A stretch of DNA of 40,183 bases from Chiloscyllium plagiosum (taxonomy: Eukaryota): NCBI RefSeq assembly GCF_004010195.1, contig NC_057751.1:19107387-19147569 (forward strand). The letters are read 5' to 3'. This document shows, piece after piece, positions 6 to 38,299 of this stretch. Position 1 is the stretch's first letter. The number at the start of each line of letters is the position of its first letter. The notes below the pieces were generated by a model. That model saw only the letters and a program-made list of their open reading frames with translations. It was not told the origin of the DNA and did not search any database. The translations under genes and the position numbers were made by a program.

Positions 6-200
6 TTAGCAGATCTGGCAGCATTTGTGGCGAGAAATTAGAATTAATGTTTCAGGTCCAGTGATCCTTCCTTAGTCACTGGACCCGAAACGTTAATTCT
101 GATTTCTCTGCAGAAGCTGCCAGACCTGCTGAGCTTTTCCAGCAATCTTTTGTTTTTGTGTGTTTTTTTTGTTGTTTTCTGATCCTCCACATTGTTGTAG
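6..200. mobile_element. Short palindromic PLE-derived insert with partial hammerhead
   Basis: 6-64 is the inverted complement of ~76-131; the right arm contains GTCACTGGACCC-GAAA-CG-TT. Same family as 29410-29512. Confidence 0.6.
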
Positions 201-943
201 TATTGGAGGTTTTGACTCTTTTTTTTTTTTTCTCTCGCTTCTCTGCTGCCACACTTGTGCATGCTGAGCTGACATTCCAAGGCCAGTGGTGTTCATGTGT
301 TGGTCAATGGCTATCCCTTGCCTGTGGGTCATGATGGTGTCAAACTGTGGTCTCAGTTGTGAAAACTTCTCCAGACTGAGCAATGTTATGACATTTTGAA
401 GGGTTGATTATACAAATTCTTGTCCTTGGATCTGTTGTATTTAAATAGTATTTGATGTGCTTCTGTAAAATAGACCTGACTACTGGAGTTTTGGAAATTT
501 CCCAAAATAAGGCTTTGGTAATGAAAGTTAAATTTATACTTAACAGAAATTTGAAAATTCATTTTGTGCTCCCTAATAAGGAGTTTGTATTGTTCCTTTT
601 TAAACAGTCTCCCAATTAGACTCCATTTTCCTTTTGTACTTAATGTAGCCTTAGAATATTAACTTCTAATTTGTGAAAAAGCAGACTTTCTGGTTTGAAC
701 TCATTTGAAGGTGTGCAGAAATATATCAAAAGCTTAAACAACCACTATTTGTTGTAATCCCTATTTGTTTTTTAAAGTTCCACAGAATTCTTCAAAAAGT
801 ATGCCAGATATTTGCTCTCACTCTCTTTCTTGCGTGCTCTCTCATCCTTTTGTGAATTGCTTTGTGGCGACCCCCCCACCCCCACCAATCTCTAACTTTC
901 TACAATCCCCTATATCCTTCTGTATCTCTGTAACTAGGACTCT

Positions 944-1409
944 AGAGTTTGAGCTATAAGGAGAGGCTGAATAGGCTGGGGCTTTTCTTTTTCTCTGGAG
1001 TGTAGGAGACTGAGGGGTGACCTTTTCTATACAGGTTTCTAAAATCAAGGGCATGGATAAGGTGAATAGGCAAGATTTTTTTTTTCCTCCCAGGTTAGGG
1101 GAGTCCAAAACTAGAGGGCATAGGTTTAAGATGAGAGGGGAAAGATTTTTAAAAAGGACCTGAGGTGTAAAAGACAAAGACCAAATACTAACCTGAGGAT
1201 GGGACATACATGGAATGAGCTGCCAGAGGAAGTGGTGGAGGCTGGTACTACACTTTTTTAAAAAGGGCAATGGGATGGGTATGTGAATAAAAAGTGTTTC
1301 GAGGGCTATGGGCCAAATGCTGGCAAATTGGGACTTGGCCATATTGGGATATCTAGTTGACGTGGACAAAATGGACCAAAGAGTTTGTTTCTGTGCTGTA
1401 TGACTCTAT
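944..1409 (+). mobile_element. CR1-clade LINE 3' fragment
   Basis: LSYKERLNRLG..D..VSKI(M)KGMDKVN ORF2 C-terminus and ..gtgctgtatgactctat tail. Confidence 0.8.
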
Positions 1410-1639
1410 CTCCTACAACACCCTACGCTCCTCTCTATCTCTAACTTCCTTCAGCCCCTACATCTACCCTGATCTGTAACCTCCTCAAGCCCTTATACCC
1501 CTCCTGATCTCCATCCCCTATGTCCCTCGCTTTCTCCATCACCTCCTCCAGCCCTTTAAAACCACCCCAAGATCTGTGTTCTTCAGCACCCACAACTTTA
1601 ATGTCCACCACATAGGCAGCTGAAGGAGTAGCCACCACA

Positions 1640-1845
1640 GAGTCAGATGTACAGCATGGAAACCGACCTCTCTGTTTCCCATCCATGCCAACCACCTATC
1701 CTAAATAGATCTAACCTCATTTGTCAGCATTTGACCCATAATCCTCTAAACCCATCCTATTCATATCCCCATCCAGATGCCTTTTAAATGTTGTAATTGT
1801 ACCAGCCTCCACCACTTCTGGCAGTTCATTCCATACGTGCACCAG
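1640..1845 (-). mobile_element. CR1 LINE 3' tail
   Basis: Reverse complement of the same 3' UTR (gatgtacagcatggaaac..). Confidence 0.75.
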
Positions 1846-2109
1846 GGTCTTGGGCTTTGGAATTCCTTATCCAAATTTCCATCTCTCTATTCCTTTTTAC
1901 TTTACTTTTCCTGTCCCTTCTACTTCCTTCACTTGTCCCTAATATTGACTTTGGTGGCTTGGGTTAAATTTTGTATCATAATGTCCTTGCCCTGATCTTT
2001 ATTGTTACACAGATTTGCTAGAAAATGTCAGTACGTGCAGATGTTTGGCCCGGACTAGATTGAATTTGATTGTGATTGTCTTTTTAGGTGATATATCTTC
2101 AGTAGATTC

Positions 2110-4696
2110 GATGATCTGGAGGTGCCAGTGTTGGACTGGGGTGTACAAAGTTAAAAACCACACAATGCCAGATTATAGTCCAACAGGTTTATTTGGAAGC
2201 ACTAGCGTTCAGAGCGCTGCTCCTTCAGGTGGTTGTGAAGTATCAGATCGGTGGTGCCAGAATTTATAGTTTACAGTGTGATGTAACTGAAATTATATAT
2301 TGAAAAAGACCTGGATTGTTTTAAGTCTTTCCTCTTTTAGAATGACCATGTTGGTTTCAGTTCTTTCTTATGTAAATCCCAGAACCTTTTTAAAAGTTAC
2401 ATTCTCAAGATGAGATTAGATTAGATTACTTACAGTGTGGAAACAGGCCCTTCGGCCCAACAAGTCCACACCGCCCCGCCAAAGCACAACCCACCCATAC
2501 CCCTACATTTACCCCTTACCTAACACTACGGGCAATTTAGCATGGCCAATTCACCTGACCTGCACATCTCTGGACTGTGGGAGGAAACCGGAGCACCCGG
2601 AGGAAACCCACGCAGACACGGGGAGAACGTGCGAAGTCCACACAGTCAGTCACCTGAGGCGGGAATTGAACCTGGGTCTCTGACGCTGTGAGGCAGCAGT
2701 GCCACCCACTGTGCCACCGTGCTGCCCACAAATTGTACCAGCCTCCACCACTTCTGGCAGTTCATTCCATACGTGCACCAGGGCCTTGGGCTTTAACAAT
2801 AGGTGCCATGTTGTCTCAGATAATGCATTGAAGGTGTGAGGTGCCCTGTGTGAGGCTGTCTGTGCCCCATGTTCAGACTGATTCTATTTCTAAAAAAGGG
2901 ATTTACAGAATCTTACATGGGTTCATGCAGATTTTGAGCAAAATAAAATGTAATTTTGCAAGTACAAGTTCACCCCACAAACTTATGTGAGAGTGTGGGT
3001 GAGTGTAAAGGGTATAAGTGTGAGCATATGCAAGAGAGCTTGTGTATGAGTCCGTAGGATATGTGTGGTGTAGTGAGGTCACCTGTAGTGTGACATGAAC
3101 CCAAGGTGTTGGTTGAGGCCGTCCCCTATCAGCCACTTTGCATTGTTGCCTGTCCCGAAGTCCACTTTGGATAGTCACCTGAAAGTCCGAGGTTGAATGT
3201 CCTGGATCGCTGAAGTGTTCTTGGAGTAGGAGGGAACACTCCTGTCTGTTGATTGTTGTGCGGTGCCCATTTCATCCCTTGCCGTAGCCTCTGCTCGGTT
3301 TCACCAATGTCTCATTCTTGGACACATGCATATCTATCAAGGATGGGCACCTCAGCACATCACTCTACCGCAAACCCACGGATAACCTCACGATGCTACA
3401 CTTCTCCAGCTTCCACCCGAAACACGTTAAAACAGCCATCCCCGACACGTACACAGGATCTATTCAGATGAGGAGGAACATGACCGGCATTTGGAAGTAC
3501 TCAAGGGTGCTCTCATAAGAACGGCCCACGATGCTCAACTCATCGACCACCAGTTCTGTCGTGCCACAGTGAGAAACTGTAATGACCTCCTCAGGAGACC
3601 GACACGAGCTGCAACTGACAGGGTACCCTTCCCAGGAGCTGAAAAACTATACCATATTCTTCGCAGCCTGCAACACATCATCAATGAGGATGAGCACCTC
3701 ACCAAGACCTTCCCCACATCTCTGTTTCGTGCCTTTAAACAACCAGCAAACCTCAAACAGATCATTGTTTGCAGCAAACTGCCGGGCTTTCAGGACAACA
3801 CCATACAACCCTGTCACAGCAGACACTGCAAGAAATGTCAGAGCGTTGACATGGATACCACCATTACACGTGAGACACCACCCACCATGGACACAGCATA
3901 TACTCATGTGACTCTGCCAATGTTGTCTATCTCATAAGCTGCAGGCAAGGATGCCCTGAAGCATGGTATGTTGGTGAGACCAAATTGAGGCTATGGCAAC
4001 AGATGAATGGACAGCGCACAACAATCAACAAACAGGAGTGTTCCCTCCCAGTCGGAACACTTCAGCGGTCCGGGACATTTGACCTCAGACCTTCAGGTGA
4101 CCATACTCCAAGGTGGACTTCGGGATAGGCAATGATGCAAAGTGGCCAAGCAGAGGCTGATAACCAAGTTTGGTACTCACAGGGATGGCCTCAACTGGGA
4201 TCTTGGGTTCATGTGACAACAGGTGACCCCACTGCAACACACACACACCTAGCAGAATCACATTTTATTTTGCTCAAAAACTGCTTGAATCCATGTAAGA
4301 TTCTATTTCTATTTTTTAGAAATAGAATCAGTCTGAACACTGGGATACAGACAGCCTCACACAGGGCACCTTACACCTTCAATGCATTATTTGAGCTGAC
4401 ATGGCACCTATTATTGAAATTCACTTGAGAGTGTAACTTTAAAAAACAAGTTCTGGGATTTATGTATGAAAGAGCTGAAACCAACATGGTCACTCTAAAA
4501 GATGAGAGATTTAACAAACACTCCAGGTCTTTTTCCATATATAATTTAAGTTGCATCACACTGTAAACTTCTGCGATAAATTCTGTGTCTTACATTCTCA
4601 TACTCCACAACCACCTGATGAAGGAACAGCGCTCCTAAAGCTAGTGCTTCCAAATAAACCTGTTGGACTATAACCTGGTGTTGTGTGATTTTTAGT
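2110..4696. mobile_element. Degenerate Penelope-like retroelement, inverted two-arm insertion with 12-bp TSD
   Basis: + arm encodes RT C-terminal FLDTCISIKDGHLSTSLYRKPTD..LHFSSFHPKH and GIY-YIG-type VVYLISC..CPEAWYVGETK..RL..QMNG, with frameshifts. 2110-~3310 is an inverted copy of the 3' part. TTCAGTAGATTC flanks it at 2098-2109 and 4697-4708. Confidence 0.85.
2414..2728 (-). mobile_element. tRNA-derived V-SINE (HE1-like)
   Basis: tRNA-like head (TGGCACAGTGG..GGTTCAATTCC), V-domain TTCTCCCCGTGTCTGCGTGGGTTTCCTCCGGGTGCTCCGGTTTCCTCCCACAGTCC, CR1-like tail with (TAATC)n; inserted in the PLE. Confidence 0.85.
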
Positions 4697-4796
4697 TTCA
4701 GTAGATTCATACATGAAGAATGGACACTTAAGGTAAAGTGCTGCCATTCTTGGTGGAAGTTTGCTCCTCCTCCTTCCTGTAGGGCACTTTGTGAAA

Positions 4797-4980
4797 CGAG
4801 TTTTGAGAAGATTTGTAGCTCAGGTTGAGGTTTTGGATGTAGGTTTGCTCGCTGAGCAGGAAGGTTCATTTCTAGACGTTTCGTTATCCTACTAGGTAAC
4901 ATCTTCAGTGGGCCTCAGGTGAAGCAATGCTGAAAATTCCTGCTTTTTATTTGTATGCTTGGGTTTCTTTGTGAAACCCA
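4797..4980 (-). mobile_element. Short PLE 3'-end insert with hammerhead motif (4872-4912)
   Basis: Minus strand reads CTGAAGA-T-GTTACCTAGTAGGATAAC-GAAA-CG-TC. Same family as 20391-20613; imperfect TSD gcactt(t)(g)gtgaa. Confidence 0.7.
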
Positions 4981-5199
4981 GCACTTTTGGTGAAGTGCTT
5001 GGTTGCCTGAACTGACTATGTGACTTGGTGTCCAATTTTGTTTGATCATGCCTGGTGAGTCATTTTTACCATTTTAACAATGTTGCATAAATCCAAGTTA
5101 TTGTTGTTAGGGCAAAAAGTGCAATGTAACGTGTAACAATAGGGCAGGACAGCAGCAGGTTGATGCTAATTTTGAGGACCATAAGACATCAGATACTGA

Positions 5200-6450
5200 G
5201 GGTCATAGAATGTAAGAAAAAGAAGCGGAAGTAGGCCAAATGGCACTTAAATCTGCTTTACTATTCGGTAAGATCCCAACTAACTACCTGTCTCTACTCC
5301 TTTCGTGTCAGCTTCCCGTATCGTTCAATTGCCTGAGAAAAACAAAATTTGTCTACCCCAGCTGGAGTATTGAATTTTACAGAATCCCTACAGTGTGGAA
5401 ACAGGCCCTTCAGCTCCAGAAGTCCACACCAACCCTCCGAAGAGTATCCCACACGAACCCATTCCTCTACATTTACCCCTGACTAATGCACCCAAGCTAC
5501 ACTATGGGCAATGTAACAAGGCCAATTCACCTAACCTGCACATCTTTGGAATGTGGGAGGAAACCCATGGAGACACGGGGAGAACGGGCAAACTCCACAC
5601 AGACAGATAGTCACCTGAAGCTAGAATCAAACCCGGGTGTCTGGCACTGTGAGGCAGCAGTGCTAACCACTCTGCTGCCCCACAACATACCCAACAATTG
5701 AGCATCTGCAATACTCTGCAGCATTGATTCACAGCCTTTTGAAAGAAGAAACGTCTTCTCGTCCCAGATTAAACGATTAATATCATATTGAGAGAGTGTG
5801 GCCCATTTCCCCAACTAACAGAAACAACCACTTTGTGTCAACTCTGTCAACTCTCTTCAGAATCTCCATGTTTCAGAGCTATTGCCTTTCATTCTTCTAA
5901 ACTCTAGACAGTATAGATCCAATTTACTCAGCCTCTTATCGGAAAATTCTGTCATCTCATTGTGCTTGGCAATGGAGATAAGACTGAGGTGTTGCACTAA
6001 GCAAACTGTCCCTGTGTAGAGCCTGTGTGGACAAGACTGATTGGCCTCCTTCTGTGCTGTGACTATTCTAAGATATTCCAGATGTGGTCTCCCCAAAGCC
6101 CAAAACTATTGTAGCAAGGTGACTTTATTCTTGTATTTGCCTGCTAATTTTTTTGTATTCCTTTGTACATGCACACATATCTCTGAACACTAACATTTAA
6201 AATCACTTTTTTTTTTGAAAATCTTCTATTCTGAAGACTAAAGTAAACAAAATTACACTTACACCTACATTAACCTCTATCTAACCACCCCACCCATTGC
6301 CCAATTACTTATCCTGTCCATAATGATTGTGTCTTCACAGCTTGCCTCCTGACCTAGCTTTATGCCATAACAGAACTTAGTTGTATTACTGTCTGTCTCA
6401 TTGTCTAAGCTATTAATGTAAATTGTAAATAGCTGAGGCTGCATCACTGA
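5200..6450 (-). mobile_element. Old CR1-clade LINE fragment (interrupted by V-SINE)
   Basis: GRPHLEY, RLSKLDLYCLEFRRMKG and LFTIYINSLD..TKF...KLG remnants. Confidence 0.65.
5381..5680 (-). mobile_element. V-SINE (HE1-like)
   Basis: Same head, V-domain and tail as 2414-2728. Confidence 0.8.
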
Positions 6451-6462
6451 CACTACACTTAG

Positions 6463-7310
6463 AGTCACACAGTCATAGAGATGTACAGCAATGGAAACAG
6501 ACCCTTCGGTCCAACTCATCCATACTGACCAGATATGCCAACGTAATCTACTCCAATTTGCCAGCAACAGCCCATATCTCTCCAAACCCTTCCTATTCAT
6601 ATATCCATCCAGATGCCTCTTAAATGTTGCAATTGTACTAGCCTCCACCATTTCCTCTGGCAGCTTATTCCATACACATACCACCCTCTGCGTGAAAATG
6701 TTGCCCCTTAGTTCTCTTCTATATCTTTCCCTCCTCACCTTAAACATATGCCATCTAGTGCTTCATCCACCCCAGGGAAAAGACTTTATCTATTTGTCCT
6801 ATCCATGCCCCTCATGATTTTATAAACCTCTGCAAGGTCACCCCTCAGCCTCTGACGCTCCAGGGAAAACAGCCCCAGCCTATTCAACCTCTCCCTATAG
6901 CTCAAATCCTCCAACCCTGGCAACATCCTTGTAAATTTTTTCTGAACCCTTTCAAGTTTCACAACATCCTTCCAATAGGGAGGAGAACAGAATTGCACGC
7001 TATATTCCAAAAGTGGCCTAACCAATGCCTGTACAGCCGCAACATGACCTCCCAACTCCTGTAATCAATACTCTGACCAATAAAGGAAAGCATACCAAAT
7101 GCCTTCTTCACTATCCTATCTACCTGCGACTCTACTTTCAAGGAGCTATGAACCTGCACTCCAAGGTCACTTTGTTCAGCAATATGCCTTAATGGTAAGG
7201 TCTTAAGTGTACAGGTCCTGCTAAGATTTGCTTTCCCAAAATGCAGAATTAAACTCCATCTGCCACTCCTCAGCCCACTGGCCCATTTGATCAAGATCCT
7301 GTTGTAATCT
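6463..7310 (-). mobile_element. CR1 LINE (HER1-like) 3' fragment
   Basis: DLGVQVHSSLK, LVRPLLEYSVQF, LERVQKKFTRMLPGL..LSYRERLNRLGLFSLE. Confidence 0.88.
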
Positions 7311-7629
7311 GGACAAACAGGAAGACAGCCAACGATCCGCATCCATGAACATCAACTAACCACGAAACGCCACGACCAGCTATCCTTAGTAGCCACACAC
7401 GCAGACGACAAGCAACATGAATTCGACTGGGACAACACTACCATTATAGGGCAAGCCAAACAAAGAACAGCCAGGGAATTCCTAGAAGCATAGCACTCAT
7501 CCACAAACTCCATCAACAAACAATCGACCTGGACCCAATATACCGGCCACGACAGCGGACAGCTGAAACTGACAACCAGAAGCGGCAGGGACAGGCCACT
7601 ATAAATGCCGAAGGAAACACCACAGAAGC
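7311..7629 (+). mobile_element. Penelope-like element, GIY-YIG endonuclease C-terminal fragment (runs into gap)
   Basis: GQTGRQPTIRIHEHQ...SLVATHADDKQHEFDWDNTTIIGQAKQRTAREFLEA*, typical of the PLE GIY-YIG 3' half. Confidence 0.8.
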
Positions 7630-8350
7630 NNNNNNNNNNNNNNNNNNNNNNNNNNNNNNNNNNNNNNNNNNNNNNNNNNNNNNNNNNNNNNNNNNNNNNN
7701 NNNNNNNNNNNNNNNNNNNNNNNNNNNNNNNNNNNNNNNNNNNNNNNNNNNNNNNNNNNNNNNNNNNNNNNNNNNNNNNNNNNNNNNNNNNNNNNNNNNN
7801 NNNNNNNNNNNNNNNNNNNNNNNNNNNNNNNNNNNNNNNNNNNNNNNNNNNNNNNNNNNNNNNNNNNNNNNNNNNNNNNNNNNNNNNNNNNNNNNNNNNN
7901 NNNNNNNNNNNNNNNNNNNNNNNNNNNNNNNNNNNNNNNNNNNNNNNNNNNNNNNNNNNNNNNNNNNNNNNNNNNNNNNNNNNNNNNNNNNNNNNNNNNN
8001 NNNNNNNNNNNNNNNNNNNNNNNNNNNNNNNNNNNNNNNNNNNNNNNNNNNNNNNNNNNNNNNNNNNNNNNNNNNNNNNNNNNNNNNNNNNNNNNNNNNN
8101 NNNNNNNNNNNNNNNNNNNNNNNNNNNNNNNNNNNNNNNNNNNNNNNNNNNNNNNNNNNNNNNNNNNNNNNNNNNNNNNNNNNNNNNNNNNNNNNNNNNN
8201 NNNNNNNNNNNNNNNNNNNNNNNNNNNNNNNNNNNNNNNNNNNNNNNNNNNNNNNNNNNNNNNNNNNNNNNNNNNNNNNNNNNNNNNNNNNNNNNNNNNN
8301 NNNNNNNNNNNNNNNNNNNNNNNNNNNNNNNNNNNNNNNNNNNNNNNNNN
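7630..8350. other. Assembly gap
   Basis: N run. Confidence 0.99.
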
Positions 8351-10579: not shown

Positions 10580-10661
10580 CGTCACGAACAGGATTCGAAC
10601 CTGTGCGGGGAGACCCCATTGGATTTCGAGTCCAACGCCTTAACCACTCGGCCACCGTGAC
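10580..10661 (-). tRNA. tRNA-Ser (anticodon CGA)
   Basis: Reverse complement reads GTCACGGTGGCCGAGTGGTTAAGGCGTTGGACTCGAAATCCAATGGGGTCTCCCCGCACAGGTTCGAATCCTGTTCGTGACG. 82 nt; GTCACGG/TCGTGAC acceptor stem, TTGGA/TCCAA anticodon stem with CT-CGA-AA loop, long variable arm, A and B boxes, G discriminator. Confidence 0.97.
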
Positions 10662-11093: not shown

Positions 11094-11094
11094 T

Positions 11095-13754: not shown

Positions 13755-14079
13755 GATGTCAAGGTGCTGGTGTTGCACTGGGGTGGACCAAATCAGAAGT
13801 CACATGACACCAGGTTATAGTCCAAGATGTTTATTTGAAATCACAAGCTTTCTGAGCACTGCTCATTCATCAAGTGAAGTGGAGGGAAATGCACAGGCGT
13901 CGAACTTATAGGTAGAGAGATTATTCCAAGATAATTCTAGGTAATTACCTAGAATCATCTTGCAATGATCTCTCTGCCTATAAATTCTGTGCCTTCACCT
14001 GACAAAAGAGCAGTGCTCAGAAAGCTTGTGATTTCAAATAAACATCTTGGACTATAACCTGGTGTCACGTAACTTCTGA
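13755..14079. mobile_element. Palindromic PLE-derived insert with two degenerate hammerheads
   Basis: Inverted arms centred on GGTAATTACC (~13945); TCAC-CTGACAA-AA-GAGCAGTGCTC-A-GAAA-GC-TT-GTGA at 13995-14031; TSD CAATTCTGAT at 13745-13754 and 14080-14089. Confidence 0.8.
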
Positions 14080-14818: not shown

Positions 14819-15023
14819 AGCAGAAGTGGGTACTGCAGATGCTGGGAATTAGAGTCAAGATTAGAGTGGTGCTGGAAAAGCACAGCAGGTCAGAAGCATC
14901 CGAGGAGCAGGAAAATCGACGTTTCGGGTAGGAAAAACAAAGGGCTTTTGCCCAAAGCGCCGATTTTCCTGCTCCTTGGATGCTGCCTGACATGCTGTGC
15001 TTTTCCAGCACCACTCTAATCTC
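14819..15023. mobile_element. Palindromic PLE-derived insert, junction inside hammerhead
   Basis: Inverted arms ~14859-14927 and ~14950-15022; TSD GAAGGGCCAAAT at 14807-14818 and 15024-15035; inserted into a CR1 3' tail. Confidence 0.8.
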
Positions 15024-15630: not shown

Positions 15631-15727
15631 ATGGACCTGAACATGATGAACTGTGAACTACTAGCAACGTGCAGTGCTTTGGGGTACCTGGAAGGGGACA
15701 GTTATCACAAAGAGCCTGATTGCTTAG
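15631..15727 (+). CDS. TIMELESS: TIMELESS coding exon 1 (exon begins at 15587; ATG at 15631)
   Basis: Translates [32 protein letters not shown], the vertebrate Timeless N-terminus. Pyrimidine tract plus ttccag acceptor ends at 15586; donor G|gtgagt. Confidence 0.97.
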
Positions 15728-17460: not shown

Positions 17461-18102
17461 AAGGAATTAAATCAGACAGACCACTTGGTATATGCCAAGG
17501 CAATGGAAGTAATGGCACACAGCCTTGTCATTCTTGCAAAGTCTCTTCTTCCTGTAAAAAAAAAAGCCGCCATTCACATTTGCTTTCTGCAAGTTAAACT
17601 TGCTTTCATCAAAACAGCGAAATAGAAGTTTCATTTCAGCAAAATTACCTCAATTTTTAAAGAGAACAAGCTATATACAACTCTTCCATTGCTTTCTAGC
17701 CAATCAAACCATCTCTAGAAAGGAAGTCTAGACTGCCAGCTGCAGTTTTAGATTTTTGGGCTCCAACTTAAAACTCCATCTGGGGCATTGTTAAACGTGT
17801 ATCTCTTGGTTGTTTTGTAGTTTAGTTTTACGAGTTGAACAATTTCTTTATCCTTTTCTATTCTATCTCTCCATGTATGTTTGTAATTGTGTTTCTGTTG
17901 CAAATCAATCCCCAATGTCTAAAAGTATATGAAATAAGCCCTACGTTGGTTTAATTTTCCTACAGTAATGTGCTCCCTTACAAAAGTCATAGTTCACCAA
18001 TAGAGGGAGTGGGGAAATACACCCTACTGTTTAAAGACAGGAGAAAAATTAAATTGCAGTCTGCTTGTTGTTATGAGTGTAGGTGATAGCAATACTGGAT
18101 AA

Positions 18103-18455
18103 GATGTGGAGATGCTGGTGTTGAACTGGGGTGGACAAGGTCAGAGGTCACATGGCACCAAGTTATAGTCCAACAGGTTTATTTGAAATCACAAGGTTTT
18201 GGAGCACTACTCCTTTGTCAGGTGAAATGTGACAGTAGTGCTCCAAAACCTTGTGATTTTAAATAAACCTGTTGGACTATAACTTGGTGTCGTGTGACTT
18301 CTGACCTTGTCCACCCCAGTTCAACACCAGCATCTCCACATCTTATCCAGTATTGCTATCACCTACACTCATAACAACAAGCAGACTGCAATTTAATTGC
18401 CTCGCTCTGAAAGCTTGTGATTTCAAATAAACCTGTTGGAATATAACCTGGTGTC
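18103..18455. mobile_element. PLE-derived insert rearranged by an inverted duplication
   Basis: Same family as 13755-14079. There are three arm copies; 18234-18398 is the reverse complement of 18047-18211. Confidence 0.75.
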
Positions 18456-20340: not shown

Positions 20341-20428
20341 TCTACTTGCTATAATCAAGTAAATAAGACAACTAAATATCCGTTTAGCTTTTGGATGTAA
20401 GTTTGCTCACTGAGCTGGAAAATTTGTT

Positions 20429-20470
20429 CTCAGATGTTTCGTCACCATACTAGGTGACATCATCAGTGAG
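20429..20470 (-). ncRNA. Minimal type I hammerhead ribozyme motif
   Basis: CTCA-CTGATGA-T-GTCACC-TAGTAT-GGTGAC-GAAA-CA-TC-TGAG: intact core, perfect 6-bp stem II, 4-bp stem I, vestigial stem III. Confidence 0.75.
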
Positions 20471-20496
20471 TCTCCAGTGAAGCACTTCACCAGCGA

Positions 20497-20538
20497 CTCA
20501 TTGATGATGTTACCTAGAATGGTGACGAAACGTCTGAG
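20497..20538 (+). ncRNA. Minimal hammerhead ribozyme motif (C3U variant)
   Basis: CTCA-TTGATGA-T-GTTACC-TAGAAT-GGTGAC-GAAA-CG-TC-TGAG. Confidence 0.6.
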
Positions 20539-21700
20539 AACAAACCTTCCAGCCCAGCGAGCAAACTTACATCCAGAACCTTAACCTGAGCTACAAATCA
20601 TCTCAAAACTCACTATCCATTTGGCTTGTCTAAAGAGACTCTCTTTGGTTGGCTCCTTGTGATAAATATTTCAAAGTGGAGCTTGAGAAATCCAAAGAAA
20701 TACAGAAAATTGCTTAAAGGAGAAGGAGACTCGAGATGAAAGGGAGGATGCTGAGATGGGAGAGCTAATGCAGTTTCAAATCTAGCTTTGGAATAATATG
20801 GTGTTTAGCCTGTGAACAATGCTTTAACATGGTGAAGGGAGAGGGACGTGCATGGGAAGGTTGGCTTTCTAATCAAAACCAGGCAGCAAACAAAAATTGA
20901 CTGTATGTAACTCTGTATCAATTAGCTGGCTTTCCCATGCTGATAGAGGGGATATGCTGGACGTCATTGCTATTTGAATCTTCCATTCTTGTTACTTTCT
21001 TTCAAAGTTGGAAGATTTGTTCTTGAGACAGGGAGTGTTTGCTGATGGGATGCTGCTAGGCTGAGCAGTCATTATACTTTTTTATTTGAGTCTATCATGA
21101 AGGCTGCTCTGAAAGCTAATTCTGGTAAGGGACAAAAGAGCCAATGTAGAGCATGTTGAAACAACATTAGGGACACTACACTTTATCGAACTTCGATTCT
21201 TGGGTGCTTGCTCATCTTTACTAAGACAGCTGCAGAAGATTTTGAAGGCCTCGGATAGGGCTTCCTAGGATAGGTCAGTACCCTAAGTAGAGTTGTGAGC
21301 TGAAACTTTCAGTGTACAAGCTCCGAGGCAGCAGTGATTGATGCCCTGCTTTTACGTTTCCATTCTAAATCCCCACCTCATCGACCAAACAGTCGTAATA
21401 AATTTTCAAACCGCTGACTGGGAGGGTTCTGGGTAATGGGTAATTCAAGATGGAGGAAGGGAAAAATTTCTGGCTGTAAGAGCTGCTCCTTTTTTTTGAG
21501 GTATTTTAGGTGTTGGAGGTGATTTCCTCAAATTCCAGGAGCAGCAATTACTGTTTTATATGCTGTTGCATTGTTTTGGAACTTCGGGGGAAAAAAAGTC
21601 AAAACAACAGCAGGTTTAAAAGGGAGAAGAGCAGACAAAGGAAGCACATGGTGAGGACAGTGCAGGAGAGAGAGAGAGAACCTGCACAGTTACCGCCTTT

Positions 21701-26490: not shown

Positions 26491-26581
26491 ATCATTCAAT
26501 TCTTGTTACGCATTGAAAACTTGTCCTTGCTTTCTGTCTACTTGGATCTAAAAAGGCTGGTAAATTAGGAAATGTTAAGTG

Positions 26582-26740
26582 CTGAACAACCTCGGTTATC
26601 CAAACATCAATTATCCGAACTAGATCTCAAGGTCCCTTACAAAGTTATCCATTATCTGAACAATCAGTTATCCAAACATTCAGTTATCCAAACAAAATAC
26701 TCCTTGCCCGTCTCATTTCGATAATCAAGGTTGTTCTGTA
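26582..26740. mobile_element. Tc1/mariner (Tigger-like) MITE
   Basis: Terminal inverted repeats gaacaacctcggttatc / gataatcaaggttgttctg followed by TA; about five internal TTATCCRAAC repeats. Confidence 0.65.
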
Positions 26741-26895
26741 CTTCTTTAAAATCTTTAACTTTTGTGATATCTCTGGGATAGCAAGGCTTGAATTCTAGCA
26801 TGCTACCCCAATGAGACGTTAATTGCTTAATTTAATTGCAATATTTTTTGAAGTACTCCTAATGTCAAATGTAGTTAAAACACTTTATTTTGTAG

Positions 26896-29409: not shown

Positions 29410-29512
29410 GATTCTGATGAAAGGTTGTCTCAGCCTGAAATATTAATTCTGTTTCTTTCCACAGATGCTAACTGACCTGCTGTTGGTTTTCAGCATTTTC
29501 TGTTTTGTTTCA
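29410..29512 (+). mobile_element. Older single-arm PLE-derived insert starting at hammerhead
   Basis: CTGATGA-A-AGGTTG-TCT-CAGCCT-GAAA-TA-TT, followed by the cagatgct..gacctgctg..ttttcagcatttt tail shared with 76-200. Confidence 0.6.
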
Positions 29513-29703: not shown

Positions 29704-29859
29704 AATATTGCTGATGATGCCAACGTGCATGACAAGGTGTTGTGGGCAATGCACATGAGTGGGATGGATGATCTCATTAAGTTTCTGGCAACTTCCCAGG
29801 AGGAGCAACAGTGGGCCATGCACATTCTGGAAATAATCTCCCTCATGTTCAGAGATCAG
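29704..29859 (+). CDS. TIMELESS: TIMELESS coding exon 6
   Basis: NIADDANVHDKVLWAMHMSGMDDLIKFLATSQEEQQWAMHILEIISLMFRDQ; aag acceptor after a U-rich tract, CAG|gtcagt donor. Confidence 0.95.
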
Positions 29860-30592
29860 GTCAGTACTGGATATGGTCTGGGGCAGAGGGGAAAACAGAA
29901 TCTGATTAGTGAGAGTGCAAAGAATTCTGTGGCAAGATTTTAAAGAACAGGAGAGTTATCCCTAGTGCCCAAATCCAATCCCTTAATCAGCATAAAAACA
30001 AAACTAGATGATCTGGTCAATATCTGTTTTCTTGGATCTTGTTCTGTACAAATTACCTGTTGCATTTTCTACTTTACAATGGTGATTCCACTTCACTGGA
30101 CTCAATTAGATGTTCAGCATTTTGGGACATATTCATGTTATGAAATGTGCTACATAAATACCAGTCATTCCTCCTTTGTGTTCCACTTAAGGAGAGAATT
30201 ACCCTGAGCTGCTTTTGAGTATCTCTCAGTAGTGAGTGACATTGACAAAGGGCTAGAAGCAGGTTCCCATGTGGTCCTGGGTTTGAATGTTTGTTTAATT
30301 TGATATGTTTTTGTTTTGCCATCACTGAATCTTGTTAAGGTACTGAGGCAAACTGTTATATTTTTCCACTGCTGTTTCTTGAGGCTGGTGGAGGTGAAGT
30401 TTTGAATATGGGGCTTGCTGTTTGTGACTCCATAGCATACTTAATTATGTATGTACCAACTGAGTTGTCAGCACAGCAGTCACTTATTTAAGAATGGTGC
30501 AGAAAACATAAAGTTCTTGGTCGCTGTTCGATTTTTGGCAAATGGAGTGAGATATTTGAACAGAGTGATTATTTTGGGAATTTTTCCTGTAG

Positions 30593-30726
30593 AAACCTGA
30601 CCAACTTGCCATGACAGGGCAAGCAAAAACTACGGAGCAGAAAGAGAAGGATTCCAGAGAGCTTGAAATCTTAAAGCAGAGAGAGTTAGCCACAAAGAAG
30701 CAAAGAACCTTTGAAAGAGGAACCAG
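30593..30726 (+). CDS. TIMELESS: TIMELESS coding exon 7
   Basis: KPDQLAMTGQAKTTEQKEKDSRELEILKQRELATKKQRTFERGT(R); ctgtag acceptor, AG|gtgaga donor. Confidence 0.95.
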
Positions 30727-30889
30727 GTGAGACTCCACATGGGTGAAATATTACCTAGGTTTTGTGTTGCAGAAGGCATTTCACACAAACCAGAGTGCCA
30801 TGCTTGAATTGAAAGAGTATAAGTAATAGAGAGGAACCAACATGTTAATTTCATGTGTTTTCCCTGCAACCCCTTCAAGTGCTAGCACC

Positions 30890-31190
30890 ATAGAAATTAG
30901 GTAGAGAGCTGGAGTGGTGCGGGGAGGGAAATCTGGAATTAGTGGCCTAGACAACTGAAGGAATGGCCCTCAGTGGTGAAGCAACTATAATTGGGTGTGC
31001 AAATAGGCCAGAGTCAAGGGGTGCACATATACTGCGGGGCTGGAAGAGATTACAGAAGTAGAGAGGAGCAAGGACATGGATTTGAACACATAGGCAAGAA
31101 CTTTAAAATCAAGGTGTTGCTTGACCAGCAGCCACTGTAGATCAGAAAGCATAGGGTGATAGGGCAATGGTACTTGCTCTGAGTTAATAT
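30890..31190 (-). mobile_element. L2-clade LINE remnant
   Basis: PMLSDLQWLLVKQHLDFKVLAYVFK resembles the L2 P.L..LHWLP...RI.FK motif. Confidence 0.6.
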
Positions 31191-31209
31191 ATGGATAGCA
31201 GAATCAGTT

Positions 31210-31450
31210 ATGAATGTAAATATAAAAAGTCTGGAATTAAGAGTCTAATGATAACCATGAAGCCATTATCGATTTGTCAGAGAAAAATACATCTGGTTTA
31301 CCTTTAGGGATGGAAACTGCCATCCTTACCTGGTCCGGCCTTAATGTGACTCCAGACCTACAGCAACTGCCCTCTGAGCAATTAGGGATGGGCAATAAAT
31401 GTTTGCCTAGCCAACATTGCCCACATCCCATGGACTAGTTTTTAAAAAAA
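31210..31450 (+). mobile_element. Second SINE family, 5'-truncated
   Basis: Matches the body of 25538-25865 and ends in an A tail. Confidence 0.65.
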
Positions 31451-31540
31451 CGAACTATCTTTTTCTTAAAGTTTCCTGTTGGAAGGATATTTTACTAAGC
31501 TGACAAAGTATTGACATAAGTAAGACTAAAAAATGTTAGC

Positions 31541-31759
31541 TGAAAATGTGTTGCTGGAAAAGCGCAGCAAGTCAGGCAGCATCCCAGGAACAGGAGAATC
31601 GACGTTTCGGGCATAAGCTCTTCTTCAGGACATTCCTGAAGAAGGGTTTATGCCCGAAACGTCGATTCCCCTGTTCCTGGGATGCTGCCTGACTTGCTGC
31701 GCTTTTCCAGCAACACATTTTCAGCTCTGATCTCCAGCATCTGCAGTCCTTACTTTCTC
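31541..31759. mobile_element. Near-perfect palindromic PLE-derived insert with back-to-back hammerheads
   Basis: 31538-31630 is the reverse complement of 31634-31726 with very few mismatches; perfect 15-bp TSD CTAAAAAATGTTAGC at 31526-31540 and 31760-31774. Confidence 0.85.
31632..31667 (+). ncRNA. Minimal hammerhead ribozyme motif
   Basis: ATTC-CTGAAGA-A-GGGT-TTAT-GCCC-GAAA-CG-TC-GATT: intact core with palindromic ACGT stem III; predicted cleavage after C31663; stem I is weak. Confidence 0.7.
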
Positions 31760-32375
31760 CTAAAAAATGTTAGCATTGGTATATTATGTACTTTAGTGCA
31801 TAATATTTTTAATAATGCTTTTCAACCATTGTACTGTGACAGAGCAAACCTTTGAGAGAGATCCATTTGTTGAGATATTCGGATTTTTGCATCCAAAATT
31901 GTTTCTCCTTCAGAATTGTCTTGTTGGATCAAGGAAAACAAACTCCGACGCGTCCTCTGCTGAATTAATTGACTAGCCTCACTGACCTTGATAACCGAAG
32001 TAATAGATATCACAAGTGGATTGCACTTCATTCTTCCTAATGTGGGCTGTTAGGGTTCAGAGTGGTGGACCAGGTAACAAGTCCCTCATTCAGGTTTCTA
32101 TATAGGAAAAGAGACATCACTTAACATTTCTTTGTGAAATATTTGTTTCCTTGTGTCATTCTCAATATGAGTTGCTATTACTAAGAACACAAAAGGCCAG
32201 GAATTAGCAAAGTTTTCTTCTGTCCCTGCACTTCCCACTCCACTGTGAACCTTGCTACTTTACTTTGTCCCCAGGCAAACAGATGATTGATTCTAAAAAG
32301 GGCACAAGTACTGAAGTGGAAGTGTTTTTGAGAATGTGATTTCTTCTTTACCAAATGTGACTTTATTTGTTCTAG

Positions 32376-32463
32376 GCATTCTCGTTTTGGCGGTACATAT
32401 CTCATACAAGGCTTGAAGTCAATTGCAGACAGAGATGTTGTTTGCCACTTGGGTATCCACAAA
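32376..32463 (+). CDS. TIMELESS: TIMELESS coding exon 8
   Basis: (R)[29 protein letters not shown] with the conserved RHSRFGG motif; ttctag acceptor, AAA|gtaagt donor. Confidence 0.96.
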
Positions 32464-33684
32464 GTAAGTGGTGTATAAGTGTTTTTACAAACTGTTTACT
32501 GTGTTCTCACTTACAGCTATGCCAACCAGTTTGGTAGGGTAAGAGACAGCATAGCAAACAAAGTCTAAGCATTAATATTACAGGAAGTTTTGATGCAGTA
32601 TCTAGGGTTAGGTCTTTCATTGTCTTTAATTTGATTGTTATCAGTCTGCAAACCTTCTTGAGGGCAATTGGAAACTGACAATAAATGTTGACCTTGACAA
32701 AGATGCTCTCAACACTGAATTTTCAAACTAAGTTTGTTTCTTTGCACAAAAGATGGCAATCTTGATTTGACACGTGTTGTAGTGGGTTTTTAAACTTTGT
32801 TTGATCAAAAGAAGTTGGGTGACTTGTAATTTCAAACCTGAGATTCTTGAATGTAAGTGAAAAATCTGTCTTTAATATTATTTATATTGCTTGTGGTTGT
32901 TAATATTCAGTAACAGTTTTAACAATTCCTTTGACAGTTGGTTGTATTGTATTATTCCCTAAGGAATGAGTGCTGTTTTTAAGAAAAAAGAGTAATAAGC
33001 ATAATTTAAATCCCATGATGCAGGTTCAGTAACTGCATATGTTCCAAAATAATTTTTCTCCCAAACCCTTCATGCAAGTTTAGAAAGTGTGGGTCACAGT
33101 TGAACCCAATCCCTACTCACCAGATATGTACGCTGTCCATCTTTCTAATGGGTATAACAAAAATAGTCATCTGGGGCAAGAATGTTTTCTGTGTTTTTTT
33201 TATCCCCTTTGACACTGTTTGATTGTTGGGTTCTGTACCACGTTCTGTGATGTGTTTTCCTATATTGCAGTTGGAAAATCAAATAATACAATGACCATTA
33301 TGGTTCCTGTGTTGATTGACAGATTTCTATGATATCATTGTTGTCAGAATTACCAGCGCAAGGTACTCAGAAGTTGAACACCGACTGTGTTGCAAACTGT
33401 GCACTTTTCTCAGTATAGGAGGACCGACTGCCCACTCAAAGTCAGGGGTTGACAGGCAAGGCTCAGGCCCATTGATGGGCAGTGTGCACGGCTGCAATCT
33501 TAAATATACAGCCAACTCTTGTAAAGCACTGATAAACGTACTTGACCAGAGCCACCATTTTAGGGCATTGAACATCTGAAACTGTGTGAGAAGAACCCAG
33601 ACTGGATAGGAGGTATTGTGCACTGATTTTTCATTCTATTTAATCAGCTTCATCATTTAATATTTGATTTATGCATTTTCTTAG

Positions 33685-33861
33685 TTGAAAAATTACAGCC
33701 ATGACACTGGCAAGAACATTAACAGAGTGCCAAAAAGAAAACAAGCAGCAAAAGAGGTGGAGAAGAAACACCGCTCTGCTATGAATGTCAGACTGTTCCT
33801 GAACGAATTCTGTCTTGATTTCTTAGAAAACTGTTACAACCGACTCATGTATGTAGTAAAG
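33685..33861 (+). CDS. TIMELESS: TIMELESS coding exon 9
   Basis: LKNYSHDTGKNINRVPKRKQAAKEVEKKHRSAMNVRLFLNEFCLDFLENCYNRLMYVVK; tcttag acceptor, AAG|gtaagt donor. Confidence 0.97.
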
Positions 33862-33894
33862 GTAAGTTTGAGATGTGAAGAAACATAAGAAGAA

Positions 33895-34600
33895 GACATG
33901 TGTTATCCTCGTCCTTCTAGTTGGTGGAGGTTGCAGGTTTGGAAGGTACTATCCAAGATACCTTAGTGAGTTGCTGCAATGCCTCTTGGAGATAGTACAC
34001 ATTGCTGCTGTTTGAGTGGTTATGGAGGGAGTGAATGATTGTAGATGTGGTGCCAATTAAGTGGATCATTTTGTCCTACATAGTGTTGAGGTTCTTGAGT
34101 GTGTTTGGAGCTACACTCATCCAGAGAAATGGGGAGTATTCCATCACTTTCCTGTCTTGTGCCATCCAGACAATGGTCAGGCTTTGAGGAGTCAGGAGTT
34201 ACCTGCTGCAGTATTCCTATCTTCTGATCCACTTAATTGTAGCCACAGCACTTATAAAGCAAGTCCAGTTCAGTTTTTGATCAGTGGTGATCCCCAGGAT
34301 GTTAATTGTGGGGAATTCAGTGATGGTAACGTCATTGAATTGTCAAGAGGGCAATGGTTAGGTTCTCTCTTGTTGGAGATGGTCGTTGCCTGGTACTCAT
34401 GTGTAATGAATGTTACTTGCCCTTGTCAGCCCAAACTGGATAATGGCTTGATCTCGCTGTATTTGAGCACGTACTGTCTCAATATCTTAATTGTGGTATC
34501 AGGAGTTGCGAGTGGTACTGAATATTATGTAATCATCAGTGAACATGATGGAGGGAAGGCCATTGATCAAGCAGTTGATGATTGAAGGGCACTGAACACT
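33895..34600 (-). mobile_element. Old non-LTR (CR1/L2 group) 3' fragment
   Basis: Degenerate MEYSP..W, HSL.H, VYYL motifs on the minus strand. Confidence 0.5.
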
Positions 34601-35013
34601 ACCTGAGGAACAGGATGGTAACCTCTCCTTCCTCTGGAAGATTTACATTTTAGAAAGTATTAGTGAACTCAACATTTTTATTCAAAGAAGCTTTGTTTGA
34701 GGTCTTTAGCTAATGTGCAAGTTCTGCTATTAGGATTCTTTTTAAAGTGTGTTTGCTCAACCCTCCCTATTATTAGTGAGATCTAAATAATCTGGTATGG
34801 GCAGCTGCTCAAAGAGAGTTCTCAATGAGGCCATCTAACTTGAACGTAAAGAGCACAGTGTGACCTTACTTGGAGAGGTGAGCTGGAGAACTCAATAGCT
34901 TGACATACTTTAAATGTTCCCAGGTAGACATAACTGAAAGATGCAACTAAACAGGAATTGTATATGAATGAAGAGACTTTTAATGTATCAGAATGTGCTC
35001 CATCCATTTCCAG

Positions 35014-35231
35014 GACAACCTTATTCGTGAGAAGGCGCAACAGTTTGATGAGACCTACTACCTCTGGGCAGTGTCATTCTTCATGGAGTTCAACCGGGTG
35101 TACCAGTTCCGTCCTGAGCTAGTGTCAGAAACTGTCAGCATTCGAGCATTTCATTTTGTGGAACGAAATATTACTAACTACTATGAAATGATGCTGACTG
35201 ACAAGACAGCAGCTGGTTCCTGGTCGAGACG
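35014..35231 (+). CDS. TIMELESS: TIMELESS coding exon 10
   Basis: [28 protein letters not shown]...[18 protein letters not shown](R); ttccag acceptor, CG|gtatgg donor. Confidence 0.97.
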
Positions 35232-35938
35232 GTATGGTGGATTAATACCAGCTATTGAAATATTGAGACCTCTTAGTTTAGCAATTGTTTTTATAAATGT
35301 GAATGGGGCAGAGATGAAATATTGGGCACATTTAGCTTCTCTTGGATTCTATTCTTTTGCATTTATCTAATGTCATTTATTTTTCCTTGTCCACTTTTAT
35401 CTGAATTTCACTTTGTTTTGTGGGGTAAGGTCCTGTGCTATCTCTTGTTACATTACGATGGTGGAAGCCCTGACATTTTTTTCTATTAATCCAAGATTGT
35501 TCCATCCAGTCATTGTGTTTCTGGTGTTCTAATATTGTTAGCACAAATTGGATTTGACCTGGTATTTTCTTGGCCTCTTGCTCAGTTCTGCACCAGGCAG
35601 TACATGGAGTAGCATTGACTAATTCTTTTTGACTCTACACTATCACTGTCTCCTTGATAATATTATCACCTGCTATTCCATACCTTCTAAAATACCTCTT
35701 GGATGAAGCCTGCTCTGGTTACTGGTTCAAACTATGTGTGAGAAAATCTTTGCCCCACTTAGTATCAAAACTGCAACTTGTTCAAATTTTTTCTACACCC
35801 CCAATAATTGCCAAGATAACATTGGTGAGACATCAGTCCTCTTTAACTGTGGGACCTGCCACAGTCATTTGTATCATCTAATATGCAACCAAAAAAAAAA
35901 GTGACAATACTTTAAAACAACTCTTTCTTTTGTCTCAG

Positions 35939-36042
35939 AATGCATCTCGCGCTGAAAGCTTACCAAGAACTGCTCAATACAATCAACGAAATGGATCACT
36001 CCAAGGATGAAAATCTGAGAGAGAGTGCCAGAGTTATCAAAT
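35939..36042 (+). CDS. TIMELESS: TIMELESS coding exon 11
   Basis: (R)[34 protein letters not shown](C); tctcag acceptor, T|gtatga donor. Confidence 0.96.
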
Positions 36043-36139
36043 GTATGATATTTTAAAATGCCATAAAAATCCAGTTAATAAATTGCATAGATGTTTGACC
36101 TGTGCCATGAACCCGGATTTGATTTCAGCCTCAGAATGT

Positions 36140-36369
36140 GTCTCAAGTTTGCATGTGCTCCCTGTGTCTGCCTGGGATTCCTCCAGGTGCTCTGGTATCC
36201 TCCCACAGTGCAAAGATGTGCAGGTTAGAGTGGATTGGCCACGGGAAATGCAGGGTTACAGGGATAAGGTAGGGGTTGGGTCTGGTTCGGATGCTCTTCA
36301 GAGGGTTGATATGGACTCAATGGGCCGAAGGGCCTCTTTCTGCACTGTAGGGATTCTGTGATTCTATGA
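36140..36369 (+). mobile_element. V-SINE (HE1-like), 5'-truncated
   Basis: V-domain and ctgtagggattct tail. Confidence 0.7.
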
Positions 36370-36520
36370 CCTGAAAGCCTGTAAAATGGAATGTTCCTTC
36401 CACCCTGCCCTCAACCGGCTAACCTTTACTTTTGATATGGTTCTGTGCTGTGCTCTGGCACCTCATGCCCATTATTCATCTGTAAACCTAGCCCAGGAAG
36501 TCATTATTGTATGACTCCCA

Positions 36521-36808
36521 TTAGAATTAGAATCCCTAGAGTGTGGAAACAGACCCTTCGGCCCAACAAGCCCACTCAGATCCATTCCCCTACATTTAAC
36601 CCTGACTAATGCACCCAACCTACACATCCCTGAACACTGTGGACAATTTAGCGTGGCCAATTCACCTGACCTGCTTACCTTTGGATTGTGGGAGGAAACC
36701 CACGCAGACACGGGGAGAACATGCAAACTCCAAACAGACAGTTGCCCAAGGCTGGAATCGAACCCTGGCGCTGTGAGGCAGCAGTGCTAACCACTGAGAC
36801 ACCGTAGC
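36521..36808 (-). mobile_element. V-SINE (HE1-like)
   Basis: Same family, inverted relative to 36140-36369. Confidence 0.8.
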
Positions 36809-37161
36809 ATCTGTTGGGATCTGGTTGTTGGAATGACTCAAAAGGTATGTGCTGGTGTCTCTTTGTGTGTAACAGATTGTCAGCAGTTGGATTTCTTTTT
36901 TACAATCAATAGGTAATGCTTCATGCCTTTGGTTTGATATTGCCATTGTAATAAGTTAAGTCCAGGCTTCACGCAGTGCCATTGCAAACTTGGGGTCAGT
37001 TCAATGCTCAGTTCAGGTGTTTGGAGTTTCTGAATTGTATCAGCTCAGTCTAGGCTGTACAATGTGATATTGATTTGAGGTGTGCGTTTGGAAGGAAAGG
37101 GAAGAGGGATATAAATGATCAAAGGGACAAGTAGACCTTAAGGAAAAACTGCATGTTATAT

Positions 37162-37178
37162 ACACACACACACACACA
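37162..37178 (+). repeat. (CA)n microsatellite
   Basis: About 8 AC units. Confidence 0.9.
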
Positions 37179-37768
37179 AACTTTTATCTTACTGTTTCAC
37201 AAGGTAGTACTAGTGTTGTCATCATTGAGATGCAGGACATGCTGTCACGATCCTTTCCATTATTCCTTTACGAAGTTACTTCCCGCAGTTGTACCACTGT
37301 TGGGAGCTTCCACATGGTGTTAGCCAATTGTTTACGAGGATGATGCTATTGCATGCTTTTAGCAGCTGTGTTGATGGTGGCGTAGTTAGAGATCACCCAT
37401 TATAAGAAGAATGTCCATTAAATGGGAAATCTTAACCTTTTTTTTTCAGCATAATTTCTTCATTAACAAGCCAATAGTTGAAATATTTTCATTTGTAATG
37501 GCAAGTTTCCTCTATCGACCCTGTCCCACTTAAGCAAGCCTCAGTCAACGTGGTTCATGAGTTGATGCTTAAAGCAAAGGACTAGCACAGAAACTAGAGA
37601 AACTGAAATTGTTCTCCATTTTGAGCCGAAAGGATTAAGGGAGAATGATGGAAATAATTTACATAAAAGGTTGTGTGGGAAAAAGCTTGTCTATCAAACG
37701 ACACATGTTTCATTTGGAAATCTGCATATCCAGTTGGCTGGTGATTGTCTAACTTGTTCCACCTGCAG

Positions 37769-37938
37769 GTAATATCTTCTATGTTATGGAATTCCGAGAG
37801 TTATTCTTAACATTGTTCCGAAAATACGATGCAACCAAGCAGCCCAAGTCGTTCCTGAAGGATCTCATTGAAACAACCCACCTTTTCATCCGGATGATTG
37901 AGAAATTCTGTAAAGGCAGAAGTAACCTTTTTGTGCAG
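37769..37938 (+). CDS. TIMELESS: TIMELESS coding exon 12
   Basis: (C)[56 protein letters not shown]; ctgcag acceptor, CAG|gtaatg donor. Confidence 0.97.
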
Positions 37939-38164
37939 GTAATGTTTGTCTTTGGCTTGTATATTGTGCTTTACATTTTACAGAATTTACATATTTTTGC
38001 AAATTGTTTGTCTCCTAAACTAATGACAAGCTTTCAGGGCAAGTTTTTAAGCCGCATCCTTTCCTAAAGCTGTAGAGTCTCTTCTGGAGTACTAAGTAAC
38101 ATCCGTCAGACCCCCTAAATCATACCAATGGTGCCTGTTTTAACTGGAGGACATTATAGTCGAG

Positions 38165-38299
38165 TAGGCGAAAGTGAGGACTGCAGATGCTGGAGCTCAG
38201 AGTCAAGATTAGAGTGGTGCTGGAAAAGCACAGCAGGTCAGGCAGCATCAGAGGAGCAGGAAAATCGATGTTTCAGGCAAAAGCCCTTCATCAGGAATG
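38165..38299 (-). mobile_element. Single-arm PLE-derived insert ending at hammerhead (38263-38298)
   Basis: Minus strand CATTC-CTGATGA-A-GGGC-TTTT-GCCT-GAAA-CA-TC-GATT. Same family as the 14819 and 31541 inserts. Confidence 0.75.

Follow-up and report, generated by a model that had tools for sequence, protein, structure and literature searches.

Hammerhead ribozyme motifs are densely distributed in a 40,183-nucleotide stretch of the Chiloscyllium plagiosum genome (contig NC_057751.1; this whole stretch is referred to below as the window), and our analysis indicates that they very probably represent 3′ stubs, dead on arrival, of Penelope-like retrotransposons (Penelope-like elements, PLEs) that encode an endonuclease and belong to at least two clades. 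Eighteen minimal type I hammerhead arms, falling into four sequence groups (F1 to F4), were recognized in 10 insertions. On average, an insertion is encountered every 3.9 kb of sequenced DNA, and together the insertions make up about 10% of the sequenced bases. The window is vertebrate DNA containing two gaps (1,150 N bases in total) and 39,033 sequenced bases, and seven of the insertions lie within introns of the timeless gene.

The motifs were far more numerous than expected by chance. A descriptor scan requiring a perfect CUGANGA/GAAA/UH core together with stem II, a search proposed in a preliminary description of this DNA, returned 5 motifs, compared with a mean of 0.1 and a maximum of 1 in 20 first-order Markov resamples. 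Allowing one core mismatch gave 8 motifs against a mean of 1.35 (maximum 4), while at two mismatches the scan lost its power, with 30 motifs against 11.8 expected. Sites were grouped by self-BLAST, and arms were then anchored by family. Group F1 comprises seven arms (stem II GGAGC/GCUCC, stem III AGCU), F2 three (GUCACC/GGUGAC, ACGU), and F3 five (GGGC/GCCC, ACGU). The three arms of F4 have two stem II forms, F4a with stem III ACGU and F4b with AGGUUG/CAGCCU and AUAU. The tails downstream of the F3 and F4 motifs are related. The preliminary description had listed 13 sites with stem II sequences differing between families; these differences are borne out, and all 13 sites are remnants from one of the four groups, six with intact and six with damaged cores. 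The site at ~76–95 lacks any CUGANGA and has a better partner on the minus strand at 46–75. The sites are nevertheless not independent, being arms of 10 insertions of which seven are inverted pairs, and five arms stood outside that list, namely 46–75(−), 14918(−), 14961(+), 18252(+), and 18416(+).

The complete core (CUGANGA, GAAA, UH) is kept in 6 of the 18 arms. In all four groups, A9 is separated from stem II by a single unpaired base, and stem I amounts to 0–4 pairs across the arms. The claim that stem III is reduced to a palindrome is correct for 13 of the 18 arms (AGCU or ACGU, and AUAU in the copy at 29414), the palindrome being broken in the other five. The closing pair G10.1–C11.1 is G–C in eight arms and G–U after CpG decay in three, the rest being truncated or changed. 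The CpG at C11.1–G12 is altered in 11 of the 18 arms (to TG or CA in eight of them), the arms being partly non-independent, and these changes fit neutral decay. Only the motif at 31636–31663 combines the core, a four-pair stem II with G–C closure, the palindrome, and a stem I of more than one pair. In an alignment (A2) of only three rows, stem II was 94% paired with one two-sided change. No hammerhead family was found among the 11 Rfam matches at E ≤ 5, and the matches at the hammerhead sites were hairpin matches to miRNA models, below the cut-offs of those models. The 33-nt F3 motif had 0 matches in metagenome contigs.

The anatomy of the insertions, comprising inverted arms, tails, and target-site duplications, had no place in the preliminary description and is characteristic of PLEs. 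Seven of the 10 insertions are head-to-head inverted pairs with their 3′ ends pointing outward. Both ends are in view in six insertions, and in each of these one arm exceeds the other by 26–51 nt, the extension corresponding to the PLE "tail". Direct duplications of 10–21 nt with a score of at least 9 flank six of the nine testable insertions, compared with 4 of 300 random boundary pairs. The centres of the pairs vary within one family: in F3, one lies at 31631–31633 and another within the core at about 14930–14945, and F1 has three different centres. In 5 of the 10 insertions, an arm ends close to the core, at most about 6 nt upstream of C3, and not at the cut site, while other arms end 16–17, 54–71, 58, or >1000 nt upstream, or within the core. 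The coordinates and details of the individual insertions are collected in Table 1.

Table 1. Hammerhead-bearing insertions, PLE coding remnants, and timeless exons in the window (F1 to F4, hammerhead groups; ORF, open reading frame; RT, reverse transcriptase).
Feature	Position	Strand	Motifs and core state	Ends and remarks
F4a head-to-head pair	8..145	both		left end cut by window edge
F4a minus arm	46–75	−	one core mismatch	
F4a plus arm	GAAA-CG-UU finishes at 94	+	begins within stem II	
F1 PLE insertion, 2.6 kb	2110..4696	both	2203–2231(−), damaged 5′ core (3-nt loss) plus A14>C; 4615–4643(+), G12>U	inverted 5′-truncated minus copy with 40-nt tail joined to longer plus copy; 12-nt target-site duplication 2098–2109/4697–4708; left arm broken up at about 2410–2791
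Partial inverted copy of PLE ORF end	3082–3271	opposite to 3306..4213		
Broken PLE ORF end	3306..4213	+		RT thumb, Cys-rich linker, GIY-YIG region; putatively Neptune-type by linker
F2 single copy	4798..4966	−	4875–4908, intact; stem I 1 pair	11-nt duplication 4787–4797/4967–4977
PLE ORF end, putatively Poseidon-type	7239..7630	+		continues into assembly gap, which would hide any hammerhead
F1 palindrome	13755..14079	both	13845–13873(−), C3>U; 13999–14027(+), G8>A; one core change each, stem II closed by U–A or A–A	centre 13944/13945; 38-nt tail; 10-nt duplication
F3 inverted pair	14819..15020	both	5′ core missing from both arms	tail about 31–41 nt; 15-nt duplication with 1 mismatch
timeless, first coding exon	15631..15726	+		match to human TIMELESS, E 2e-16
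F1 three-arm insertion	18104..18454	both	18193–18221(−), G8>A and G12>A	partial plus arms end at 18252 and 18416; candidate 9-nt duplication not significant
F2 palindrome	20391..20606	both	20433–20466(−), intact, stem III ACAU; 20501–20534(+), C3>U	centre 20483/20484; 26–30-nt tail; degenerate duplication
F4b single copy	29410..29500	+	29414–29444, intact	sense to timeless; right end approximate; no target-site duplication found
F3 palindrome, youngest	31541..31759	both	31601–31628(−) and 31636–31663(+), both intact; predicted cut after 31663	arms 97% complementary; centre 31631–31633; 36-nt tail; exact 15-nt duplication 31526–31540/31760–31774
timeless, internal exon	35008..35232	+		match to human TIMELESS, E 8e-33
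F3 single copy	38165..38299	−	38267–38294, intact; stem III ACAU	both CpG sites decayed; no target-site duplication found

Two of the groups could be connected to PLE proteins, which upholds the proposed PLE origin for F1 and F2 directly. The ORF remnant in the 2.6-kb F1 insertion (3306–4213) is 59–87% identical to shark PLE-like proteins, in whose sequences an RT thumb, a Cys-rich linker, and a GIY-YIG-like end can be read. The ORF end at 7239–7630 matches P0012, a protein with a sub-threshold RVT_1 match and without the Cys-rich linker. Translated F2 arms align with the C-terminal end of P0014, a relative of P0012; two of them score 61 and 63, where shuffled sequences reached at most 38 and 36, respectively. 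The relatives of F2 show RVT_1 plus a weak GIY-YIG match. In F2, the ORF stop falls in loop II and a second ATG frame opens at stem II. Searches of Pfam gave nothing useful for the window fragments or for P0001 and P0004, no solved relative was found for P0002, and Atlas matches are treated as leads only. F1 adjoins, and F2 overlaps, an endonuclease-positive PLE ORF (RT with a C-terminal GIY-YIG). The Cys-rich linker marks Neptune and Nematis elements (PMC8557442); F1, with the linker in P0001 and P0002, would be Neptune-type, and F2, with the linker absent in P0012, would be Poseidon-type. The PLE origin of F3 and F4 rests on their anatomy, since no ORF tie exists in the window. The nearest named relatives of the retroelement proteins belong to Chiloscyllium, Hemiscyllium, and Stegostoma, with identities of up to 95%. 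Pieces of PLE ORFs are also included in shark gene models for NOXP20-like, MAP3K7, CUEDC2, and NT5DC1 isoforms (P0010, P0011, P0017, P0018), which represent either exonised PLEs or annotation artefacts.

The features described above can be accommodated in a single mechanism. The minimal hammerhead would be part of the terminal repeat (pLTR), about 95–130 nt upstream of the RT start points. The PLE protein would nick an A/T-rich target on both strands, about 10–15 nt apart, and priming of cDNA at either of two internal RNA sites, as we infer here, would produce the ends with and without a tail. The cDNAs presumably stop early, in many cases no more than a few bases past the 5′ edge of the hammerhead core; with both strands extended, two stubs would join 5′ to 5′ into a palindrome with unequal arms. 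The hammerhead would be copied from uncut RNA and travel as a passenger in the stub; selection would act on it in the source elements only, with genomic copies decaying neutrally, and the hairpin of the palindrome would remove the ribozyme fold. Two RT start sites and extension of both strands have been shown in vitro for the Anolis element (PMC11167929).

Both the motif and the elements that carry it have been described before, as has their anatomy. According to PMC4209133, minimal hammerheads reside in metazoan PLE pLTRs, mostly as solo copies plus opposite-strand pairs, and the window agrees with that account in the type I core with its unpaired base before stem II, the palindromic 15.2/16.2 positions, the several families per genome, and the prevalence of solo truncated copies, the opposite-strand pairs lying 100–700 bp apart. 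In contrast to the hosts named in the accessible text of that source, the host here is a cartilaginous fish. The density of 6 intact cores in 39,033 bases would extrapolate far above the 4,000 motifs reported for coelacanth and the 9,000 for Xenopus, a comparison that relies on one window and a different descriptor. Inverted 5′-truncated copies with a 30–40-bp tail at one end are known from PLE insertions (PMC8557442, PMC3846280), and the head-to-head arms, the tail on one arm, the ~10-bp duplications, and the palindromic junctions of endonuclease-positive PLEs are all found here, although most of the insertions in the window measure only 130–350 nt. The clustering of 5′ ends just upstream of the hammerhead core had no counterpart in the accessible portions of those two papers. 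As in Poseidon PAc of Anolis carolinensis (PMC11167929), a hammerhead lies at the pLTR/ORF junction with a frame running from stem II in the F2 arms, two 3′ ends occur, and no RNA ends were seen at the cut site; in contrast to PAc, F1 is putatively Neptune-type, and F3 and F4 carry no clade assignment. No study of shark PLE hammerheads was found in the literature searched for sharks, cartilaginous fish, or inverted non-autonomous forms, the coverage of which excludes most subscription papers.

Several observations weigh against the interpretation of the motifs as PLE stubs, or limit it. Three of the nine testable insertions lack a significant duplication, and the null for the duplications is generous because boundaries were set by eye. 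Protein matches for F3 and F4 stay within the shuffle range, with no upstream ORF sequence in the window, and the third F2 arm scores 45, barely above its shuffle maximum of 44. The Neptune and Poseidon labels stand on a linker motif rather than on a tree. The 5 of 10 arm ends clustered near the core exceed what random truncation alone explains. Copies 4875 and 4615 fold stem II poorly too (0.12 and 0.08), and the loss of the fold is consequently not solely a hairpin effect. Finally, core changes with lower support may lie outside the variable places listed from the sequencing reads described below.

Cleavage by the copies in the window is predicted to be unlikely, and three other interpretations of the motifs are also weighed here. 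All six palindrome arms that were folded in context gave a stem II probability of 0.0, compared with 0.81–0.97 for the single copies 38267 and 29414. No same-family pair with both copies intact on the same strand exists in the window. Local cleavage is therefore unlikely on both counts, and the inverted pairs of the window cannot form the dimers as which such motifs are proposed to cleave, since a dimer needs two same-family copies on one strand. According to PMC4209133, single minimal hammerheads showed no cleavage in vitro and dimers cleave weakly, and for the Anolis hammerhead, cleavage needed the PLE protein, the ribozyme was dispensable for insertion, with uncut RNA serving as the predominant template (PMC11167929). 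Co-option of some copies as active ribozymes cutting timeless pre-mRNA is thus extremely unlikely: the sense copies 29414–29444 and 31636–31663 in timeless introns do keep a full core and a palindromic stem III, but the latter is held within a 93-bp hairpin, follows its antisense arm in transcription, and is apparently absent in the related organism B, whereas the former is without a same-family sense partner in the window. A second interpretation, suggested in part by the preliminary description, regards the motifs as non-LTR retrozymes whose tandem arrays cut as dimers to release circular RNAs. Retrozymes are short non-coding hammerhead repeats related to PLE pLTRs that, in contrast to the solo or inverted minimal copies of the window, form head-to-tail arrays of canonical type I hammerheads, which have a long stem I and loop contacts, and yield circular RNA (PMC7229834; bioRxiv 10.64898/2026.07.22.740005). 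They occur in one chondrichthyan among 31 vertebrates, and a contig joint of organism B that leads from 31761 to 31632, at a depth of 105 compared with about 10 for single-copy flank, is most simply explained by two stubs joined head to tail at another place in the genome of that organism. However, every pair in the window is inverted, Tandem Repeats Finder detected a single 16-nt repeat and no tandem hammerhead array across the window, the motifs are minimal, not canonical, with no hammerhead match in Rfam at E ≤ 5, and partial tandems belong to normal PLE anatomy too, which makes this interpretation very improbable for the copies studied here. The third, in which the palindromes are fixed DNA transposons with terminal inverted repeats, resembling miniature inverted-repeat transposable elements, draws on the several hairpins of 200–330 nt between direct duplications; it is largely refuted by centres that differ within a family, unequal arms, duplications ranging from 10 to about 21 nt, and the existence of single arms.

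Sequencing reads matching the insertion at 31541 illustrate the abundance of F3 and bear on how its stubs arise. Reads of four runs were compared with the stretch 31620–32600 at 88% likeness. A total of 48,376 DNA contigs matched in organism A, which may be the origin of the assembly, lying on one 130-nt F3 arm, and 36,768 in organism B, which accords with the very large numbers of motifs anticipated in the preliminary description; summed contig depth is taken here to indicate very high abundance, not copy number. One contig of organism A passes from the flank into the element. In organism B, the match of a 2,825-nt contig begins at 31760, exactly where the duplication starts, while the 155 letters that precede this point in the contig do not align, and its flank differs from the window at 19 of 838 bases; the site thus appears to be empty in this related species, and the insertion would be younger than the split between A and B. 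Within the F3 motif, the variable places listed fall at N7, at two positions of loop II, and at a stem change private to this copy. In the RNA run X21, a polyA single-cell library, 1,949 of 12.96 million records matched, all of them on the F3 arm, with both directions covered and 96% continuing into unlike sequence. No pile of starts or ends was observed in X21, the predicted cut at 31663/31664 included, although a polyA library provides a weak test; no X21 reads fell on the unique flank or exon, no joints were listed for the RNA, and run X22 had no matching reads. Loose ends pile up at 31759–31762 (3′) and at 31631–31632 (5′); among those listed for X21, 154 reads at 31631 share a common upstream sequence (agreement 0.72), and 109 at 31632 have mixed flanks (0.38). 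Additionally, 181 RNA reads with loose ends at 31759 have one flank in common (agreement 0.87), with AATAAA about 20 nt downstream; they probably stem from a single transcript that is expressed and contains F3 close to its 3′ end. Contig joints connecting the predicted cut region (31664–31668) with the 5′ edge of the F3 stub (31631–31633), and the tail end (31761) with that edge (31632), reach 4–13× single-copy depth and are leads only; the joint from 31631 to 31664, on opposite strands in organism B, is the only one with its orientation given. A-to-G changes were commoner in RNA than in DNA contigs, but one highly expressed copy could explain them, and RNA editing is not claimed.

These ends raise the possibility, which we consider unlikely, that the ~130-nt stubs, F3 especially, are full copies of a short transcript started at an initiator upstream of the hammerhead, and would then form a self-renewing, short interspersed nuclear element (SINE)-like, non-autonomous PLE family moved in trans rather than random truncations. 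The arm ends close to C3 in half of the insertions and the 5′ loose ends at 31631 and 31632 agree with this idea, and when the upstream consensus is added, A31632 becomes +1 of the initiator-like heptamer TCATTCC. That match, however, was spotted after the fact, and 4.2% of the A's in the window would match by chance. Moreover, X21, a poor test for this purpose, shows no place where many molecules begin, its run-on into unlike sequence in both directions is as expected for passengers in host transcripts, and the remaining arms end at scattered points. Binding and priming by the Anolis element, on the other hand, need only the region just downstream of the hammerhead (PMC11167929). In its broadest form, which is likewise doubtful, the proposal would give carpet sharks a very large population, still mobile in recent times, of non-autonomous PLE units of ~130 nt, each of them a full copy of a short transcript from an initiator four bases upstream of the core, with palindromes built anew by both-strand priming and with rare head-to-tail dimers and cut-site junctions linking PLE stubs to retrozymes. 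If this were true, the cut-site junctions would be the first genomic trace of in vivo hammerhead cleavage.

Other observations concern the insertions and their surroundings. In the left arm of the 2.6-kb PLE, the segment 2731–2793 copies 1795–1857, located 0.9 kb upstream (62/63 identical), and directly follows an insert that is presumably SINE-like; the copy looks like a local templated capture. A 165-nt inverted duplication at 18047–18398 (98% identical) extends over about 56 nt of flank. It is younger than its host insertion at 18104..18454, the older arms of which are 90% identical; it is either a secondary foldback or an assembly artefact. The timeless gene lies on the plus strand, as both exons match human TIMELESS, and a minus-strand tRNA gene with a CGA anticodon and a long variable arm of the serine type (10580–10661; Rfam 62.5 bits) sits directly upstream of its probable start. 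A short element at 26577–26743, with 28-nt inverted ends and an internal 16-nt tandem repeat, is unrelated to the hammerhead groups.

Since the motif, the elements, and their anatomy have already been published (PMC4209133, PMC8557442), what is gained from the interpretation of the window copies as PLE stubs is scale and a good test system rather than a new mechanism. What the hammerhead does in the PLE cycle and how head-to-head insertions come about are still open questions (PMC8557442, PMC11167929), and a genome with an insertion about every 4 kb offers a natural archive, on a very large scale, of the points at which RT starts and stops. The insertions also seed introns with hairpins, which are possible substrates for editing or silencing.

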